Source: a phage | Sequence record: PX994957.1 | DNA length: 64,000 bases | Strand: one strand, 5' to 3' | Shown: piece after piece, positions 3,324 through 62,251 of the stretch | Numbering within the stretch: position 1 is the stretch's first letter | How the letters are laid out: every line of letters starts with the position of its first letter | Notes under the pieces: model-generated | What the model was told of the DNA's origin: nothing | Seen by the model: only the letters and a program-made list of their open reading frames with translations | Database searches by the model: none | Made by a program: the position numbers and the translations under genes

Positions 3324-3351
3324 TTTGTGTTCCTCCGTAGTTGATAGTTGT

Positions 3352-3382
3352 ATAGTACCACAGAGGAACAGTCTTGTAAACA
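3352..3382 (-). promoter_or_regulatory. T-even early promoter
   Basis: GTTTAC (3377-3382), 18-nt spacer, TACTAT (3352-3357); flanked by inverted repeat GTTCCTC/GAGGAAC. Confidence 0.55.
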
Positions 3383-3839: not shown

Positions 3840-3869
3840 ATATTACCACAGTCCTTGTGGTATGTAAAC
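3840..3869 (-). promoter_or_regulatory. T-even early promoter
   Basis: GTTTAC (3864-3869), 18-nt spacer, TAATAT (3840-3845); spacer dyad CCACAGTCCTTGTGG. Confidence 0.5.
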
Positions 3870-5913: not shown

Positions 5914-8091
5914 TTAGGCCGCAAGGGCCTTCATAGTTTTAGCGATTTGGGAAACTTCATCATCACTTAAAGAGTTGCGATATCCGATGAAGTCGGAAAC
6001 AATACGGAATTTCTTGGTAAACTCAGCAACCATTTTATCACTGTTTTTTGAAGCATTATTTGATAATACATCAAAAAGATTAGTTACTGTCCAGATATCA
6101 TGACCGATGGTATCTTTTCCACCATTAAAATATACACCGCGCAATGAACTAACTATATTAGCGAGTCGTGTATATTCTTCAGAAACTTCATCTGTACTGA
6201 AGTACTTCATCATAAAATCTAGCTCAGGATACTTGATAATTTTATCAATATATCGTTGAGCTGAACTTGAATAACCTACATACTTATCATAATCTACATC
6301 ATCAAAAGCATCTACATATAAATCACGCAAAGCTTCAAAAATACATTGGCACTGACCGAGTTCTTTTACCTTTTTCTGTAAAAGCGGACGAATAACATAA
6401 AATTCATTAATGCCAATAAGATTAGCCATACGAATCAAAATATTCATAGATGGATGACAAAGTGATGTAGTACCATCCATAGAGAAAATATCAGAACGAT
6501 GCATATACGCTACATAACCAGTAATTTCATCTGCTTCTGACGTAAGTGTAAATAGTTCCTCTTTTTCCCAGCGCCCATCTTTAATTTCAAATTTAAATGC
6601 TGTAGCAGCTTTAGGACGAGGAGCTTTACTTTTAACTACCTTTGGAATATAACTTTTAACCAAAGCTTCAATTTCTGACAAATAGTGAATGTTAACTTCA
6701 TCACTTTCAAACATCGCCATAATATCAGGGAGTAAATCAATCTGCGATTCTACTTCCGGATTAATAAACAGAAGACGCTCATTGTGATGAATATTCAAAG
6801 TGTTATTAAATTCACTATCATCTAACGCGTGTGCTAATCCACGGACAATATTAACACGATTTTTAATATTATCAATAACGATATTAATTTTTGTTGTATT
6901 AATACCAAACAGACGATAACTTGATGCAACGGCTGAAGTTTCATGACTTTGCTTAATGCGTTTCAGTCGAGGGTCAAGATTTACTTCATACACCACGCCT
7001 GCATTACATAACTTACTGTCAGGTTCAAACATGCTCTGCATCTTCTTATATGACAGATTTTTAGTCGTGAATTTGACTGAATTACTAATCATATAATCTC
7101 GAGCAGAATAGCCCATTTTCATTAACTCGCGATACGTATGGCGAGGAGATGTAGATTCTTTAAATCGTTTTACATCTTCATTAAATGCTTTCTCACTAAG
7201 CTCTTTAACTCGTTCAATAATATTTTTACGAGTACGATCATCCAATGAAAGAGCTTCACGTGATGGAGCAATATCAAGTGAACCCATTGGAAACTTAATG
7301 TAATTCACTTCATTGCGAATGCTTAGCCAGTTACGGTCTCTAATAACACCATCGATAGGATAAACAATACCGCCATAGATAGCATATAATCCACCACGAT
7401 CAGGCCAGTATCTTTCTGGATTTACACCGTAATAATCATCAAAATCCGGAAAATAATCAATTTCACGGTCAAGACCATTAATAATAGCCAAATCTTTGAA
7501 CGGTCGCATGATATAAGAAACTTCATAAGCAAAGTTTCTAAAGTCTTTTTCTTCAACTGGAACTACGATTTCAATACCAGTTTTATCATCTGGACCCATT
7601 TCTTTTACGAATGTAGGTTTAATCTGTGGGCCATCACCATCCATGTAAGCTACATAACCACGAATTTCACCTTTATGATACGAAGTAATACTAAACGTAT
7701 CAGTATAACTAAACGGAGATTTAGAACCTAAACCAAATCCGCCAATGAAATCGTTAGATTCAGCCTTAGATGAACTGAAGTATGAATTATACAAACCAGG
7801 AGAATTATCATCACCCTGAATATCAAAATCACTCATACCCGGACCAAAATCTCGGCAAACAAATCGTGGATCTAAACGTCCAGGAACTTGAATGATAAAT
7901 TTTTCAGGATTTCCATTGAGAGCATGGGCATCAATCATGTTGGTAATCAATTCACGAACAACTGCGCGAATCTTATTTGTATACAAATCAGATGATAAGA
8001 TTTTAAATACTTTAGGAGATGCTGTGATGCTAAATGCTTTTGATTTAGAACCATTACCAAGAATTGTTTCTTTTTCAGTGGTGATAATCAT
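5914..8091 (-). CDS. rIIA: RIIA (GHKL-ATPase-like membrane-associated protein)
   Basis: 725 aa, equal to T4 rIIA; ATG 8091 with SD GAGGAAATTA. Confidence 0.93.
5916..5930 (-). other. rIIA-rIIB intercistronic hairpin
   Basis: AGGCC gcaag GGCCT palindrome between rIIA stop and rIIB SD. Confidence 0.45.
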
Positions 8092-8305: not shown

Positions 8306-8330
8306 TCCAATATCCTCATTTGCCCAATTA

Positions 8331-8360
8331 ATTATACCACATCCTTGTGGTAAAGTAAAC
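8331..8360 (-). promoter_or_regulatory. T-even early promoter for rIIA.1-rIIA-rIIB
   Basis: GTTTAC (8355-8360), 18-nt spacer, TGgTATAAT extended -10 (8331-8339); spacer dyad CCACATCCTTGTGG. Confidence 0.6.
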
Positions 8361-11722: not shown

Positions 11723-11992
11723 TTAATTGAACAGTGGAGCGATGCGTTTCAGAAGAGTAGCAGCACCTTTAGCGAATTTTACATCATGAAAAACAGTTTC
11801 TTCTTCCGTTACAACACGAGCTTTAATGTTTTCACAATCCCAATTTTTGCGAACAATCTTCAAAAGCTGCAGTAAATCTTTACATTCAGCAATATCGATA
11901 ACACATCCACGAGAATCTTCCATTATTGCACGATAACCGTAAGCCATACCATAATCGTTGAAAGATTGCTCGATGATAATTAAGTTTTCCAT
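11723..11992 (-). CDS. hypothetical protein
   Basis: 89 aa from ATG 11992 with SD GGAGAATAAA; track start is TTG in promoter leader. Confidence 0.55.
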   Translation of the reverse strand: MENLIIIEQSFNDYGMAYGYRAIMEDSRGCVIDIAECKDLLQLLKIVRKNWDCENIKARVVTEEETVFHDVKFAKGAATLLKRIAPLFN

Positions 11993-12034
11993 TTTATTCT
12001 CCAAGTTATTTTCTGTATCAGTAGTTGATATTGA

Positions 12035-12064
12035 TATAGTACCATAATCAACTACTGATGTATA
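12035..12064 (-). promoter_or_regulatory. early promoter variant inside a 12-bp inverted repeat
   Basis: TACTAT -10 (12035-12040) with weak -35 ATATACA; arms TCAGTAGTTGAT / ATCAACTACTGA flank the -10. Confidence 0.35.
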
Positions 12065-12586: not shown

Positions 12587-12630
12587 AGTTATCTCTCACT
12601 TGTTAAAAAGATTTTATACTCCACAGGACC

Positions 12631-12660
12631 ATTATACTCTGGTCCCAAGAGTTTGTAAAC
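12631..12660 (-). promoter_or_regulatory. T-even early promoter upstream of motB
   Basis: GTTTAC (12655-12660), 18-nt spacer, TATAAT (12631-12636); -10 bracketed by GGACC/GGTCC inverted repeat. Confidence 0.55.
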
Positions 12661-13705: not shown

Positions 13706-13732
13706 TTTATTATCCTCAGTAGCTATGGTGTT

Positions 13733-13762
13733 ATAATACCACAACTAACCGAGGAAGTAAAC
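13733..13762 (-). promoter_or_regulatory. T-even early promoter
   Basis: GTTTAC (13757-13762), 18-nt spacer, TATTAT (13733-13738). Confidence 0.5.
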
Positions 13763-18280: not shown

Positions 18281-18900
18281 TCAACTACCTCAATATCATA
18301 AACTTTAAATGTTCCAAATGAATCGTGTAATTTTTCTTTTGAAATAGAAGTTATTTTATACTTTCCAATTGGAATCATCCATTCTTGTTCACGCACAATC
18401 ATCATTAAGTTATCAGTTCTTTCTGAATCTAACCCGTCAGTATCTTCATACGTGTACTTAAACTCAGTATTAGGAGAAGAAAGTATAATATCGCTGATAT
18501 GGTCAGAATAATTAAAAGCTTTATCAGTTTTTAAGCGAAAAATTATTTCAGTGAAATATTCAGCATAAGAAAAAGAACACGCTGTATGCAAACTAGTAGT
18601 AAATGAATCTACCCTGTTCGTTGAAAACACTTCTCCAACTTGTAAATCTTTAATGAGTTCTTTTGTCGATTTTGATATACCACGATATAATTGATAAGGC
18701 GATTTAATTAAATGCTTTTTAATGATTTTATTCAACTGTCTGTGAAGAGCTTCATTCTTTTTGGCTTCCATACATTGCCAAAGAACAGACTGCTCAAAGT
18801 CAGTAAATTTTTCACAGACCTTTTTATACATATCATATTGAAAATCAACGCTTTCAGCTTTTATAGATAACTGTTCAACATCTGCAAGATTAATAATCAT
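18277..18900 (-). CDS. modB: ModB ADP-ribosyltransferase
   Basis: 207 aa, equal to T4 ModB; paralog of modA (LYRGIS, EQEWMIP). Confidence 0.75.
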   Translation of the reverse strand: MIINLADVEQLSIKAESVDFQYDMYKKVCEKFTDFEQSVLWQCMEAKKNEALHRQLNKIIKKHLIKSPYQLYRGISKSTKELIKDLQVGEVFSTNRVDSFTTSLHTACSFSYAEYFTEIIFRLKTDKAFNYSDHISDIILSSPNTEFKYTYEDTDGLDSERTDNLMMIVREQEWMIPIGKYKITSISKEKLHDSFGTFKVYDIEVVE

Positions 18901-18926
18901 GATAGCCTCCGTATACTTCAGAAGCT

Positions 18927-18956
18927 ATCATATCATCGTTAGAAAGGAAAGTAAAC
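18927..18956 (-). promoter_or_regulatory. T-even early promoter upstream of modB
   Basis: GTTTAC (18951-18956), 18-nt spacer, TATGAT (18927-18932). Confidence 0.5.
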
Positions 18957-21057: not shown

Positions 21058-21073
21058 CCGGTAAAATGAAAAA

Positions 21074-21091
21074 GGACTCCCTAGGGAGTCC
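21074..21091 (-). terminator. intrinsic terminator after soc
   Basis: perfect palindrome GGACTCCCTAGGGAGTCC followed on minus strand by CUUUUUCAUUUU. Confidence 0.6.
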
Positions 21092-21099
21092 TTGAATTA

Positions 21100-25291: not shown

Positions 25292-25320
25292 AACAATCTC
25301 CTCATTTAACCAACAAGACT

Positions 25321-25350
25321 ACTATACCATAGTCTTGTCAGTTTGTAAAC
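25321..25350 (-). promoter_or_regulatory. T-even early promoter upstream of dmd
   Basis: GTTTAC (25345-25350), 18-nt spacer, TATAGT (25321-25326); dyad CAAGACTA / TAGTCTTG around -10. Confidence 0.5.
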
Positions 25351-26786: not shown

Positions 26787-27131
26787 TTAAAAGAATTTAA
26801 ACTTTTTCTTTGACCTTTTATTAAATGCATCTTGTAGTTGCATTGTAATACATTTTTCTACATGAGGAGCTAACTCAGCTTTTCTTTTTTGGTCAAGAAC
26901 AGCAAAGTCCATTACGACTTTTCCATCAACCCAATCTAATTTTGTCACATACACAATATGTGTAGAACCATCTTCTAGTTTAATGACAATCTCCTGGATA
27001 ACATTTTCCATGGCAGATTTAATTATCTTAAGAGATTCATTAAAAAGACGTTCTTTTCTTTCTTCTTCCCCCTCCGAAGAGGGGGATTCATCGATAATTT
27101 CTAGATCTAAATCTAAATCATCTTTATTCAT
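26787..27131 (-). CDS. 40: gp40 head-vertex assembly chaperone
   Basis: 114 aa from ATG 27131 with SD GGAAGAA (track GTG start gives 120 aa); position between uvsX and 41. Confidence 0.65.
   Translation of the reverse strand: MNKDDLDLDLEIIDESPSSEGEEERKERLFNESLKIIKSAMENVIQEIVIKLEDGSTHIVYVTKLDWVDGKVVMDFAVLDQKRKAELAPHVEKCITMQLQDAFNKRSKKKFKFF
27068..27085 (-). other. GC-rich UUCG-loop hairpin inside the gp40 coding sequence
   Basis: CCCCCTC CGAA GAGGGGG perfect 7-bp G/C stem in an otherwise AT-rich region; encodes SPSSEGEE. Confidence 0.6.
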
Positions 27132-31071: not shown

Positions 31072-31158
31072 AGTTTTGTGAAAATTTTTTAGGGAATTTT
31101 AAATGTCCAGAATCATCTGTTTTTCATAAGTATAGATTTATATTACTTGTATGAAAAA

Positions 31159-37461: not shown

Positions 37462-37478
37462 GTTTTTCCTCCACAGAG

Positions 37479-37502
37479 ATTATACTCTAATAAATTAAAG
37501 CA
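37479..37502 (-). promoter_or_regulatory. MotA-dependent middle promoter
   Basis: MotA box aTGCTTTA, 11-nt spacer, TATAAT (37479-37484); inside inverted repeat GAGATTAT / ATAATCTC. Confidence 0.5.
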
Positions 37503-37516
37503 TAATCTCTTATAAA

Positions 37517-48664: not shown

Positions 48665-49134
48665 TTTAAACTCTTTCTAAGCTGCTTCTTAAATGAAGCT
48701 ATTAATTGTGTTTTAGTGTCAGATTCATTATATTCAAATCCTCTTTGAAGCATCTCAGCCATCATTTCCTCTTTTCCTAAACGAGAAAATTCCTTTGATT
48801 TATCTCCAACAAAGTTAGGGTGAATATTATTTTGGGTGTAATCGGATTTTAAATAAGTAAGTAAATTTTCTAACCATTCAAGATAATCAACACCTTGCCC
48901 CTTTAAGCCAGAACGATTAAATTTATGCTTCATTTGACCTTCTGCGGCATTGCAGAGATTACAAAGCAATCCACGTACCTTTCCTGCTTTTGGCCCATTT
49001 AATTCATGGTCATGATCAAGATGATTAGCTTGAACATCAGGATTTAGTTCTCGTTGGCAAATTAAGCATTTACCGTTTTGTGCATCATAAAATTTCTGTT
49101 TTTCTTCTTTATATAATTTGCCAGTCAATAACAT
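48661..49134 (-). CDS. 49: gp49 endonuclease VII (Holliday junction resolvase)
   Basis: 157 aa, equal to T4 endo VII; zinc-binding CLIC...CNLCN. Confidence 0.9.
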   Translation of the reverse strand: MLLTGKLYKEEKQKFYDAQNGKCLICQRELNPDVQANHLDHDHELNGPKAGKVRGLLCNLCNAAEGQMKHKFNRSGLKGQGVDYLEWLENLLTYLKSDYTQNNIHPNFVGDKSKEFSRLGKEEMMAEMLQRGFEYNESDTKTQLIASFKKQLRKSLK

Positions 49135-49140
49135 AATAAA

Positions 49141-49163
49141 CCCTTACCTTAAATAGATAAGGG
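49141..49163 (-). promoter_or_regulatory. stem-loop sequestering the gene 49 SD
   Basis: CCCTTA / TAAGGG arms with the SD AAGGTAAGG in the loop and 3' arm; T4 gene 49 is recalled to be regulated by such a hairpin. Confidence 0.45.
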
Positions 49164-49175
49164 TATTTATTATTT

Positions 49176-49661
49176 TCAAGTATTGTAAAACATTTGATTC
49201 AATCGCTTATATTGCCGAATCTTTTGGTCAGAAAAAGAAATTTGGGTTTCAAGCCATTCAATATATTCTGCCGCAGCTTGCATCAAATTTCCTTCATAGC
49301 CATCGTTATTTTCTTGTGCAGCTAATTTAGCTAATGCGTATGAAATACGTTCACCTTGAAAATCAGCTTTAGGCTTCTGAACAACTTGATTAGTTCTCTC
49401 TACAACTTCTTCAATTTCGCCATTTTCTACTGATTCAGTATTCCACAAGCACCAATACGTAATTGGCTTATCGTAGATGTTAATAATCTTTCCATCAGAA
49501 AGTTCAATTTCAATAATTCCAGTATCAGGTTCTATATCATCTTCACATTCTTTTGCAAGTTCACGAACTTTAAAGACAGTACCTGCACTAAGTTCCGGCC
49601 AGTAATTACACAGCCCTGTATCAGCACGATTAATTCTAAACCACTTATCTACTGTAATCAT
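49176..49661 (-). CDS. pin: Pin (inhibitor of host Lon protease)
   Basis: 161 aa from ATG 49661 (SD GGAGATGGGAC), equal to T4 Pin; track start is TTG. Confidence 0.7.
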   Translation of the reverse strand: MITVDKWFRINRADTGLCNYWPELSAGTVFKVRELAKECEDDIEPDTGIIEIELSDGKIINIYDKPITYWCLWNTESVENGEIEEVVERTNQVVQKPKADFQGERISYALAKLAAQENNDGYEGNLMQAAAEYIEWLETQISFSDQKIRQYKRLNQMFYNT

Positions 49662-53045: not shown

Positions 53046-53073
53046 AATAATCTCCTCAGTAGAAAGTAAGAAC

Positions 53074-53103
53074 ATTATACCACATCCTTGTGGTAAAGTA
53101 AAC
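53074..53103 (-). promoter_or_regulatory. T-even early promoter
   Basis: GTTTAC (53098-53103), 18-nt spacer, TATAAT (53074-53079); same spacer dyad as the rIIA.1 promoter. Confidence 0.55.
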
Positions 53104-56022: not shown

Positions 56023-56050
56023 TTTCTGTTCCTCCGTAGTTGATAGTTGC

Positions 56051-56080
56051 ATAGTACCACAGAGGAACGGTCTTGTAAAC
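56051..56080 (-). promoter_or_regulatory. T-even early promoter
   Basis: GTTTAC (56075-56080), 18-nt spacer, TACTAT (56051-56056); GTTCCTC / GAGGAAC inverted repeat. Confidence 0.55.
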
Positions 56081-57490: not shown

Positions 57491-57520
57491 ATAGTACCAT
57501 AAAGCTTTATGCTTGTAAAC
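57491..57520 (-). promoter_or_regulatory. T-even early promoter upstream of the ATPase gene
   Basis: GTTTAC (57515-57520), 18-nt spacer containing palindrome ATAAAGCTTTAT, TACTAT (57491-57496). Confidence 0.55.
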
Positions 57521-60563: not shown

Positions 60564-60667
60564 TACATACTCCTTTGAATCATATCAATAATATTGTTCA
60601 CCAGATTATAGGTAAACAAAGGATAATTATATTGAATCATCACATACACGACAAACAAAATTTTCAT
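60563..60667 (-). CDS. 34-aa hydrophobic peptide
   Basis: ATG 60667 with strong SD GAGGAGAAGAGA directly downstream of early promoter; absent from ORF track. Confidence 0.4.
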   Translation of the reverse strand: MKILFVVYVMIQYNYPLFTYNLVNNIIDMIQRSM

Positions 60668-60695
60668 TCTCTTCTCCTCAGCAGTTGACAAGATT

Positions 60696-60725
60696 ACTAT
60701 ACCATAACCTTGCCAACTTGTAAAC
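60696..60725 (-). promoter_or_regulatory. T-even early promoter
   Basis: GTTTAC (60720-60725), 18-nt spacer, TATAGT (60696-60701). Confidence 0.5.
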
Positions 60726-61961: not shown

Positions 61962-62251
61962 TCAGTCTCCAATTTAATGTTCATAATTCTAGCGTATGAT
62001 TGTGCCATCTCCGCGCCTCGTTCTATACATTCAAAATCAGAAGAGCACGGGTCATTTTTATAGGTCGTTCTCATAAAACTATAGAACTGTTCAGATGATT
62101 CTACGCTTTTATTTTCAAAAAGCATATAAACATGTCTAATACCAGATTCCATAAATTTATCAAAATGAGGATCGACATTCGCTTCAATTGGTGGAGATAA
62201 AGCAAATGACAATCCTAGCATGGCAAAAAGTGCCGTTGCTTTTAAGGCCAT
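61958..62251 (-). CDS. rI: RI lysis-inhibition regulator
   Basis: 97 aa, equal to T4 RI; N-terminal signal-anchor MALKATALFAMLGLSFALSP; SD GGAGG. Confidence 0.8.
   Translation of the reverse strand: MALKATALFAMLGLSFALSPPIEANVDPHFDKFMESGIRHVYMLFENKSVESSEQFYSFMRTTYKNDPCSSDFECIERGAEMAQSYARIMNIKLETE

Follow-up and report, generated by a model that had tools for sequence, protein, structure and literature searches.

The closest described counterparts of the hairpins considered here are the PeSLs (promoter-early stem-loops), composite cassettes of early promoter and stem-loop defined in phages phi1 and RB49 (Arbiol et al. 2010, Genome Biol Evol 2:140, PMC2839356). A PeSL comprises an upstream stop codon, an AT-rich tract, a sigma-70-type early promoter, a stem-loop, and a Shine-Dalgarno sequence (SD) with ATG; in RB49 and phi1, PeSL-to-PeSL recombination with mini-circles has been demonstrated, and one of the stem-loops lowered lacZ like rrnB T1 (PMC2839356). 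The class was extended to T4/PST, with the promoter consensus TTTACW-N17-TAYWAT, and associated with the exchange of genes around ndd (Comeau et al. 2014, Genome Biol Evol 6:1611, PMC4122927), a region in which one of the elements described below, at 3328-3370, also lies. Here we analyse a stretch of 64,000 nucleotides of phage DNA (sequence record PX994957.1; "the window"), the early region of a Tequatrovirus (T4-like) with its genes and promoters on the minus strand, and in particular a hairpin at 12017-12059 that overlaps an early promoter. The elements of the window, of which this is one, have the same anatomy as the PeSLs of the 2010 and 2014 papers, each of the parts named above being found in both, and are therefore members of that published class, real and ordinary in kind. 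We put at a little over 0.6 the probability that in these PeSL-type composites, where a strong T4-type early sigma-70 promoter overlaps a stem-loop of the sense strand, the hairpin marks and insulates the boundary of a transcription unit.

In both sets the stem-loop lies mostly in the interval from the -35 to the -10 or over the -10, the stems contain G-T pairs, and the cassettes are repeated through early, hyperplastic regions, as has been described for T4/PST too. There are also differences. The stems of RB49 and phi1 are rich in polyG/polyC and followed by T-runs, and so resemble terminators, whereas those of the window are AT-richer, mutually unrelated in sequence and without a U-tract; an RB49 cassette that we folded places its arms as in the window, but with a GC-rich stem and a T-run. 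The 2014 paper places the stem-loops of PST/T4 immediately before the promoter; in the window the strongest are inside it. Masking of the ribosome site is discussed in neither PeSL paper, and the 2010 text nowhere uses the word 'translation'. To the PeSL picture the window would thus add a probable constraint on the sense-strand RNA, a hairpin predicted to be specific to read-through transcripts and, in a subset, a predicted translational gate. The T-even internal-protein loci, as cited in Arbiol 2010 from Repoila et al. (1994), carry an early promoter with weaker, AT-rich stem-loops of variable size; a T4-type early promoter joined to an AT-rich stem-loop is common to them and the window, a likeness drawn through that citation for loci that lie outside the window.

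The hairpin at 12017-12059 (minus strand) is built of the 5' arm ATCAGTAGTTGAT (12059-12047) and the 3' arm ATCAACTACTGAT (12029-12017), with an inner 5-bp helix and a 3-nt loop at its centre, which hold the -10; together they make a nearly continuous 18-bp helix. It folds at -23.6 kcal/mol (z = -4.4; none of 200 dinucleotide shuffles was equally good), and an independent inverted-repeat search returned it, as 12017-12036 / 12040-12059, among the longest inverted repeats of the window. The promoter that it overlaps (12036-12064, minus strand) has the -35 TATACA at 12064-12059 and the -10 TACTAT at 12041-12036; its spacer is the 5' arm, and its predicted +1, judged from the -10, is the A at 12029. 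The 5' untranslated region (UTR; 11990-12028, minus strand) follows, with an SD, GGAG, at 12002-11999 that lies outside the hairpin and the ATG at 11992-11990. This promoter serves an open reading frame (ORF) of 89 amino acids downstream of motB, and its counterpart in T4 is the cef promoter. The cassette has four paralogs in the window, at 31084, 57538, 260 and 3889, and as a query it matched three to five places per genome in relatives; the paralogous msp1 cassette of T4 has a depositor-annotated -35 GTTTACA and -10 TACTAT. The 3' arm is exactly the conserved first 12-13 nt of the transcript (ATCAACTACTGA), common to many early promoters. The unique part is the 5' arm, which has supplanted the usual spacer, weakening the -35 to TATACA. 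Neither arm varies among about 20 Tequatrovirus loci, while the 5' UTR does, and in 16 Tequatrovirus loci arms and loop are both invariant; the repeat of T4 at this site is identical. As a separate observation, transcripts of nearly all early promoters in the window, RB69 and JS98 start with (A)TCAAC, often cTATCAACtac, about 7 nt past the -10, and examples of this conserved initial transcribed sequence, covering about +1 to +7, are found at 12029-12024, 3341-3335 and 31035-31029.

The T4 records AF158101 and NC_000866 carry no promoter features, so promoters were called from the DNA itself; 20 T4-type early promoters were mapped in the window, all on the minus strand. Their form is TTTAC(A/T), 17 nt, TA...T, with TGG usually preceding the -10 and with SD and ATG 25-45 nt downstream, in agreement with the TTTACW..N17..TAYWAT consensus published for PST/T4. 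They are situated among small non-essential ORFs, and on its 3' side the cassette ends in the SD and start codon of the gene that follows; at most hairpin promoters the upstream stop codon is 0-24 nt from the -35, and A+T is modestly enriched in the 29 nt upstream of the -35 (mean 73% vs 66% for the window). Folded from the -35 to the start codon, eight of the 20 (60724, 56079, 25349, 18955, 13761, 12659, 12064 and 3380) have z between -3.6 and -5.9, and two more are moderate. The upstream and downstream halves of the window promoters fold at a mean of -12.4 kcal/mol with their own partners and at -9.4 when swapped (0 of 20,000 permutations), and the same exchange of halves is significant in RB69 (7 of 20,000) and in JS98 (74 of 20,000). 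A scan of the whole 64-kb sense strand in 48-nt windows, with local hairpins ranked by stability, puts 7 of the first 13 and 8 of the first 40 in early promoters, which make up about 2% of the sequence (P about 1e-9 for the enrichment among the strongest local hairpins); of all strong local RNA structure in this stretch, promoter-embedded hairpins form the largest single class. The same scan recovered, as a positive control, the known ribosome-site hairpin of gene 49 (49129-49176, minus strand, with the late-promoter-like ATAAATA). Rfam gave no match at the gathering threshold across the whole window.

These results bear out and enlarge a sequence-only reading that had pointed to inverted repeats in several early promoters and had proposed folding across each of them. 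Every dyad that it listed is present in a minus-strand T4-type early promoter; in places its coordinates were off by 1-2 nt, the main repeat, which begins at 12017, having been started one base late and the GTTCCTC arm of the 56-kb copy beginning at about 56028. It had missed equally strong hairpins at promoters 60724, 13761 and 18955, and the phenomenon is broader than it reported.

The strong hairpins share a layout, in which the 5' arm takes up the spacer, the loop contains or adjoins the -10, and the 3' arm begins between -1 and +10; at modB the 5' arm is the -10 itself with the first transcribed bases. Starts were placed from the -10 position, and 5' arms end at or before about +7 relative to the -10. 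Because the 5' arm lies upstream of the predicted start, the hairpin should be able to form only in read-through RNA from upstream promoters, as the sequence-only reading had suggested among other possibilities. In the mechanism that we propose, transcription from the local promoter would start about 7 nt past the -10, inside or after the loop, and the resulting mRNA, lacking the 5' arm, would stay open; polymerases arriving from upstream would transcribe both arms, and the hairpin, present in read-through RNA only, would mark and insulate the boundary between units packed stop-codon-to-promoter. Intrinsic terminators, which are likewise stable hairpins right after a gene, and embedded hairpins are mutually exclusive upstream of the window promoters: of the 5 promoters preceded by an intrinsic terminator none has an embedded hairpin, and of the 15 not so preceded 11 have one (Fisher P = 0.008). 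Translational coupling by the ribosome terminating on the upstream gene was also considered and set aside; the 5' arms begin at least 12 nt past the stop codon.

Which molecule is constrained can be approached through the strand on which the stems pair. For each of the ten hairpin promoters in the window, the fold of the sense RNA is 2-11 kcal/mol more stable than that of the antisense, owing to G·U pairs in the stems. Among Tequatrovirus relatives, 15 of 19 distinct substitutions in promoter-embedded stems keep pairing, and transitions at Watson-Crick pairs of these helices gave G·U nine times and A·C once (P = 0.011), a bias that incidental downstream helices in the same alignments do not have. 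This 9:1 ratio points to the sense-strand RNA as the constrained molecule and agrees with the read-through hairpins just proposed; a symmetric count in ungapped stems, 12 G·U vs 4 A·C, is only suggestive and tells less than the substitution types. Individual stems illustrate the changes. At promoter 60724, whose hairpin (60683-60718, minus strand; -19.5 kcal/mol, z -5.3) pairs AGTTGGCAAGGTTA with TAATCTTGTCAACT, both G·U pairs of the window are A-U in T4. The dmd promoter hairpin (25308-25343, minus strand; AACTGACAAGACTA / TAGTCTTGTTGGTT; -18.9 kcal/mol, z -4.6), which stands directly after the gene 41 stop codon with its SD unmasked 4 nt downstream, differs between T4 and the window by one A-U to G·U and one G·U to G-C change.

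More distant comparisons used loci found by MotB searches (7 from IMG/VR and 10 from a metagenome collection), to which GenBank genomes were added. In these alignments, arms are conserved or compensatorily changed across Tequatro-, Mosig- and Dhakavirus. The clearest example is the motB promoter hairpin (12618-12652, minus strand; -22.1 kcal/mol, z -3.6), with TATAAT in its loop, the core GGACCA/TGGTCC (12645-12640 and 12631-12626) and an outer helix ACTCT/GGAGT: in seven distinct sequences from three lineages all 56 of 56 cells pair, three pairs being changed on both sides, and in slid controls 29-46% of cells pair. Its arms, GGACCA/TGGTCC in the window, are GGGGCCA/TGGTCCC in the metagenomic phage L010 and GAGAGCCA/TGGCTCTC in L011 and JS98. 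The site after motB, or before cef, to which the 12017-12059 hairpin belongs, carries a hairpin of unrelated sequence in each lineage: GGTAGGGTA / TACCCTATC in JS98 and L011, with the same unusual TATACA -35, GGTCTAT / ATAGACC in RB69, and GATAGGG / CCCTATC in L010, with no clear promoter. At motB.2 the spacer pairs with the SD in all three genera, and the SD-distal half of the stem is different each time. In four lineages (the window, RB69, JS98 and L010) the -10 of modB pairs with its SD and start codon, and the -10 and the start-codon context change together, from TATGAT/ATCATG in the window to CATAAT/ATTATG in L010; this promoter is therefore constrained by RNA pairing as well as by sigma-70. 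The covariation in related phages that the sequence-only reading had named as a check is thus there, and so is its pattern of varying sequence at conserved position, RB69, JS98 and two metagenomic phages having different arms at the same promoter positions; its suggestion of selection for structure rather than for a shared motif is upheld, save for the palindrome ATAAAGCTTTAT taken up below.

Hairpins that sequester the ribosome-binding site (RBS) and contain a promoter are known from T4, for genes e, soc, 49, I-TevI and segB (PMC3014915 section 29, PMC2988022 section 12). The reviews list only late genes for such masking and call that a commonality (PMC3014915, PMC2988022). In these cases, as at some window promoters, SD and AUG are paired in the long, upstream-initiated RNA, while a promoter in the DNA of the 5' arm or loop gives a short, translatable transcript; they differ in that the known cases are late genes with late (TATAAATA) promoters, where the hairpin delays expression, whereas the window promoters are early sigma-70 promoters of early genes. 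The logic would therefore be reversed, with expression confined to the immediate-early burst.

We computed the energy needed to open the SD-AUG region twice, in the read-through context and in the transcript from the local promoter. For motB.2 (promoter 13761) the values are 15.1 and 4.2 kcal/mol, for modB (18955) 16.5 and 2.6, for nrdC.8 (56079) 16.0 and 3.9, and for the ndd-region ORF (3380) 12.6 and 1.6; at these four promoters SD/AUG is in the 3' arm, and the prediction is that read-through RNA masks it while the transcript from the local promoter leaves it open. The motB.2 promoter hairpin (13713-13755, minus strand; -23.7 kcal/mol, z -5.9), directly after the dexA stop codon, is the most stable local hairpin of the window, and in it the whole spacer pairs with the 5' UTR, including the SD, GAGGA. 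In the modB hairpin (18898-18932, minus strand) the -10 TATGAT and the first transcribed bases pair with the SD GGAGG and the AUG. In the hairpin of the ndd-denB region promoter (3328-3370, minus strand) the spacer, TGTTCCTCTGTGGT, is paired with the SD-containing ACTACGGAGGAACA, and the nrdC.8 promoter hairpin (56026-56070, minus strand), a paralog of it, has the SD GGAGG in its 3' arm. Masking is not predicted at 12064 (4.5 kcal/mol in read-through, 4.3 in its own transcript), 12659, 25349 or 60724, where the SD is free, and altogether only 4-5 of the 20 promoters are predicted to mask it. Promoter 60724 (60667-60724), whose downstream ORF encodes a 34-aa hydrophobic peptide, shows the reverse, 8.9 kcal/mol in its own transcript vs 2.8 in read-through, possibly through alternative pairing of the freed 3' arm.

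In the masked subset of motB.2, modB, nrdC.8 and the ndd-region ORF, read-through RNA would be translationally silent for that gene and, being untranslated, might become a target of Rho-dependent polarity. It is conceivable, at rather less than even odds, that the spacer or -10 of some T-even immediate-early promoters doubles as an anti-Shine-Dalgarno sequence, with modB, motB.2 and nrdC.8 translated only from transcripts of their own promoters and silent on the abundant read-through RNA. The product of modB is a toxic ADP-ribosyltransferase. Such a gate set by the choice of promoter would mirror the late cases of e, soc and 49 with the opposite temporal logic. Early-promoter masking of this kind, at modB, motB.2, nrdC.8 and one ndd-region ORF, may be undescribed so far: our literature searches, which did not cover the older subscription literature, found no paper on it, nor any transcript-end maps for T4.

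At the other subset of promoters, 12017-12059 included, the ribosome site would be open, and the hairpin most likely attenuates read-through or forms a barrier at the 3' end of the upstream cistron, an assignment that rests on the RB49/phi1 PeSL reporter result.

Several points weigh against the insulating read-through hairpin. The comparative sample is small, about 25 loci, and a search with the ModB protein found genera at either at least 95% or under 40% identity, giving no graded divergence between. The advantage of the sense over the antisense strand, present in the window and JS98, is absent in RB69, where the test is uninformative because the stems are mostly perfect Watson-Crick. In T6 (L026) a U-to-C change puts an A·C mismatch in the middle of the dmd stem, the sole antisense-type transition in the promoter-embedded helices. 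The terminator scan found no U-tract after any embedded hairpin of the window. Read-through accessibility of the SD does not differ between promoter-proximal and other genes (Mann-Whitney P = 0.48); masking as a general rule for promoter-proximal genes was therefore rejected, and it belongs to a subset. At 12017-12059 itself the SD is unmasked, and the specific role of that hairpin is therefore the least certain. Finally, start sites, RNA 3' ends and translation are all predicted from sequence.

Of the other explanations, the one that survives best is that the hairpins with a free SD, 12017-12059 among them, act in mRNA stabilisation or processing, as 3' barriers that protect motB or gene 41 from 3'-5' exonucleases after cleavage; candidates for the cut are RegB, acting on the downstream GGAG, and RNase E, or the hairpin might itself be an RNase III-type processing site. 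RegB cuts exposed intergenic GGAG motifs in early mRNAs, and secondary structure protects them (Uzan and Miller 2010, PMC3014915). In its favour, the stop codon of the upstream gene precedes the hairpins by 0-24 nt, a GGAG Shine-Dalgarno follows them closely, and the helix at 12017-12059 is almost continuous over 18 bp. It leaves unexplained why the 5' arm should sit upstream of the local start, however, and searches of the accessible literature turned up no processing data. We consider these variants, taken jointly, unlikely as a full account, and they overlap with the insulating read-through hairpin rather than exclude it.

A constraint on the DNA itself, as operators for a binding protein or as hairpin or cruciform sites of recombination, is considerably less probable. 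Arbiol et al. speculated that the stem-loop is the target of a DNA-binding protein in shuffling (PMC2839356), and the demonstrated PeSL-to-PeSL recombination and mini-circles of RB49 and phi1 (PMC2839356) speak for such a role. In the window the cassettes are repeated, as the four paralogs of the 12017-12059 cassette and a 31-bp core at 8359 and 53102 attest; homology between relatives breaks in some loci directly ahead of the motB -35 and a short way past the motB.2 start; and the mostly perfect Watson-Crick stems of RB69 leave the strands indistinguishable. Against this, the arm sequences are unrelated from promoter to promoter, and therefore no single binding protein fits; the sense orientation tolerates G·U and avoids A·C by 9:1, and several stems have two or three G·U pairs that are A·C mismatches on the other strand. 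Nor does the 12017-12059 site bear the mark of shuffling. The 89-aa ORF between motB and cef (11723-11992) is intact in the window, and T4 holds a short remnant of it at 6483-6652; in T4 and many relatives 208 bp of the ORF were deleted between the microhomologies GAAAA and TAAAA, with promoter, hairpin, SD and first codons kept. The polymorphism is therefore a simple deletion inside the ORF, and cassette exchange at this site was rejected.

We give an equally low probability to ordinary Rho-independent terminators that happen to overlap the next promoter. The RB49/phi1 versions do look like terminators, GC-rich and with T-runs (that at RB49 3201 is GGGAGTCTCCCTT followed by TTCTTTT), one of them reduced lacZ like rrnB T1, and the hairpins of the window are embedded where a separate terminator is absent. 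However, intrinsic terminators have a GC-rich stem and a U-tract, whereas the embedded hairpins are AT-rich; lacking the U-tract, they are not canonical intrinsic terminators. The scan picks up true terminators, for example at 21072-21093, and of the embedded hairpins calls only that of modB, whose tail is within coding sequence. Delayed-early expression in T4 moreover needs read-through of such junctions (Hinton 2010, PMC2988021).

Chance palindromes of AT-rich intergenic DNA, without function, are very improbable as a general explanation: the window shows no enrichment for perfect 12-bp palindromes (32 vs 25 +/- 5 expected), a generic consensus promoter scan is non-discriminating (82 found vs 81 expected), and ATAAAGCTTTAT and the short spacer dyads are individually weak, but for the long hairpins chance is contradicted by z values down to -5.9, by the swap tests in three genera, by their concentration in promoters and by the compensatory changes.

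The perfect palindrome ATAAAGCTTTAT is itself a different matter. It is present in the spacer of the nrdC.10 promoter, at 57499-57510 (no strand assigned) rather than at 57497-57508 as first given; since palindromes of its kind are not enriched, it is at chance level and most likely lies outside the hairpin system. The nrdC.10 promoter region has z = +1.3 and a canonical terminator upstream.

The short CCACA..TGTGG dyads in promoter spacers, also noticed at the outset, are present and recur with other stems in RB69 and JS98, but are weak individually (z about -0.5). They lie at 8335-8352 (rIIA.1 promoter; minus strand, TACCACA agga TGTGGTA, the 3' arm forming the TGn/-10 edge) and, identically, at 53078-53095 (nrdC.4 promoter, minus strand); a third, TACCACA aggac TGTGGTA at 3844-3862 (minus strand), had not been listed. 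The rIIA.1 mini-hairpin is invariant in 14 loci and weak on its own. All three have the loop AAGGA(C/T) and a 3' arm that is the TGTGGTA edge of the extended -10, and the same design is seen in the motB and motB.1 promoters of RB69 and the imm and modA promoters of JS98 with other stems, such as CATCC/GGATG and ACCAC/GTGGT. The rIIA.1 and nrdC.4 promoters, some 45 kb apart, share an identical 31-bp core (8329-8359 and 53072-53102), a potential substrate for homologous recombination or gene conversion.

A middle promoter with a MotA box (TGCTTTA, then TATAAT) is found inside a -19.3 kcal/mol hairpin at 37469-37516 (minus strand), between genes 46 and 45.2, and the arrangement therefore extends beyond early promoters; RB69 has a hairpin of different sequence at the gene 46/45.2 junction too. 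Very stable minus-strand hairpins without a T-run also occur in coding DNA, at 27041-27088 (CCCCCTCttcgGAGGGGG, near the uvsX/gene 40 junction, -20.2 kcal/mol) and 62169-62216 (-20.4 kcal/mol).

The window as a whole has about 35% G+C across its 64 kb and a steadily negative GC skew. Over 2.5 kb it is 100% identical to two phages of the genus Tequatrovirus, Escherichia phages vB_EcoM-G157lw and Sa45lw, and identity to many relatives of T4 is about 94%. Judged against T4, ECO4 and other annotated genomes, the gene order is motA, gene 52, ndd-denB, rIIB, rIIA, gene 39, goF, cef, motB, dexA, dda, srd, modA/B, soc, 61, dmd, 41, 43, 45, 46, 47, 55, nrdD, 49, nrdC.x and mobD.x, up to tk.

For engineering, these elements offer a compact natural design by which neighbouring transcription units would be insulated with no need of a terminator. 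Where T4-like genomes are annotated, such dyads are better read as PeSL-type cassettes than as operators. For the biology of the T4-like phages, they suggest a second layer of information within the promoters of the dense early regions, and in the subset where spacer and RBS are predicted to pair, this could be a simple explanation of how some immediate-early proteins are limited to a short burst despite transcription from upstream.

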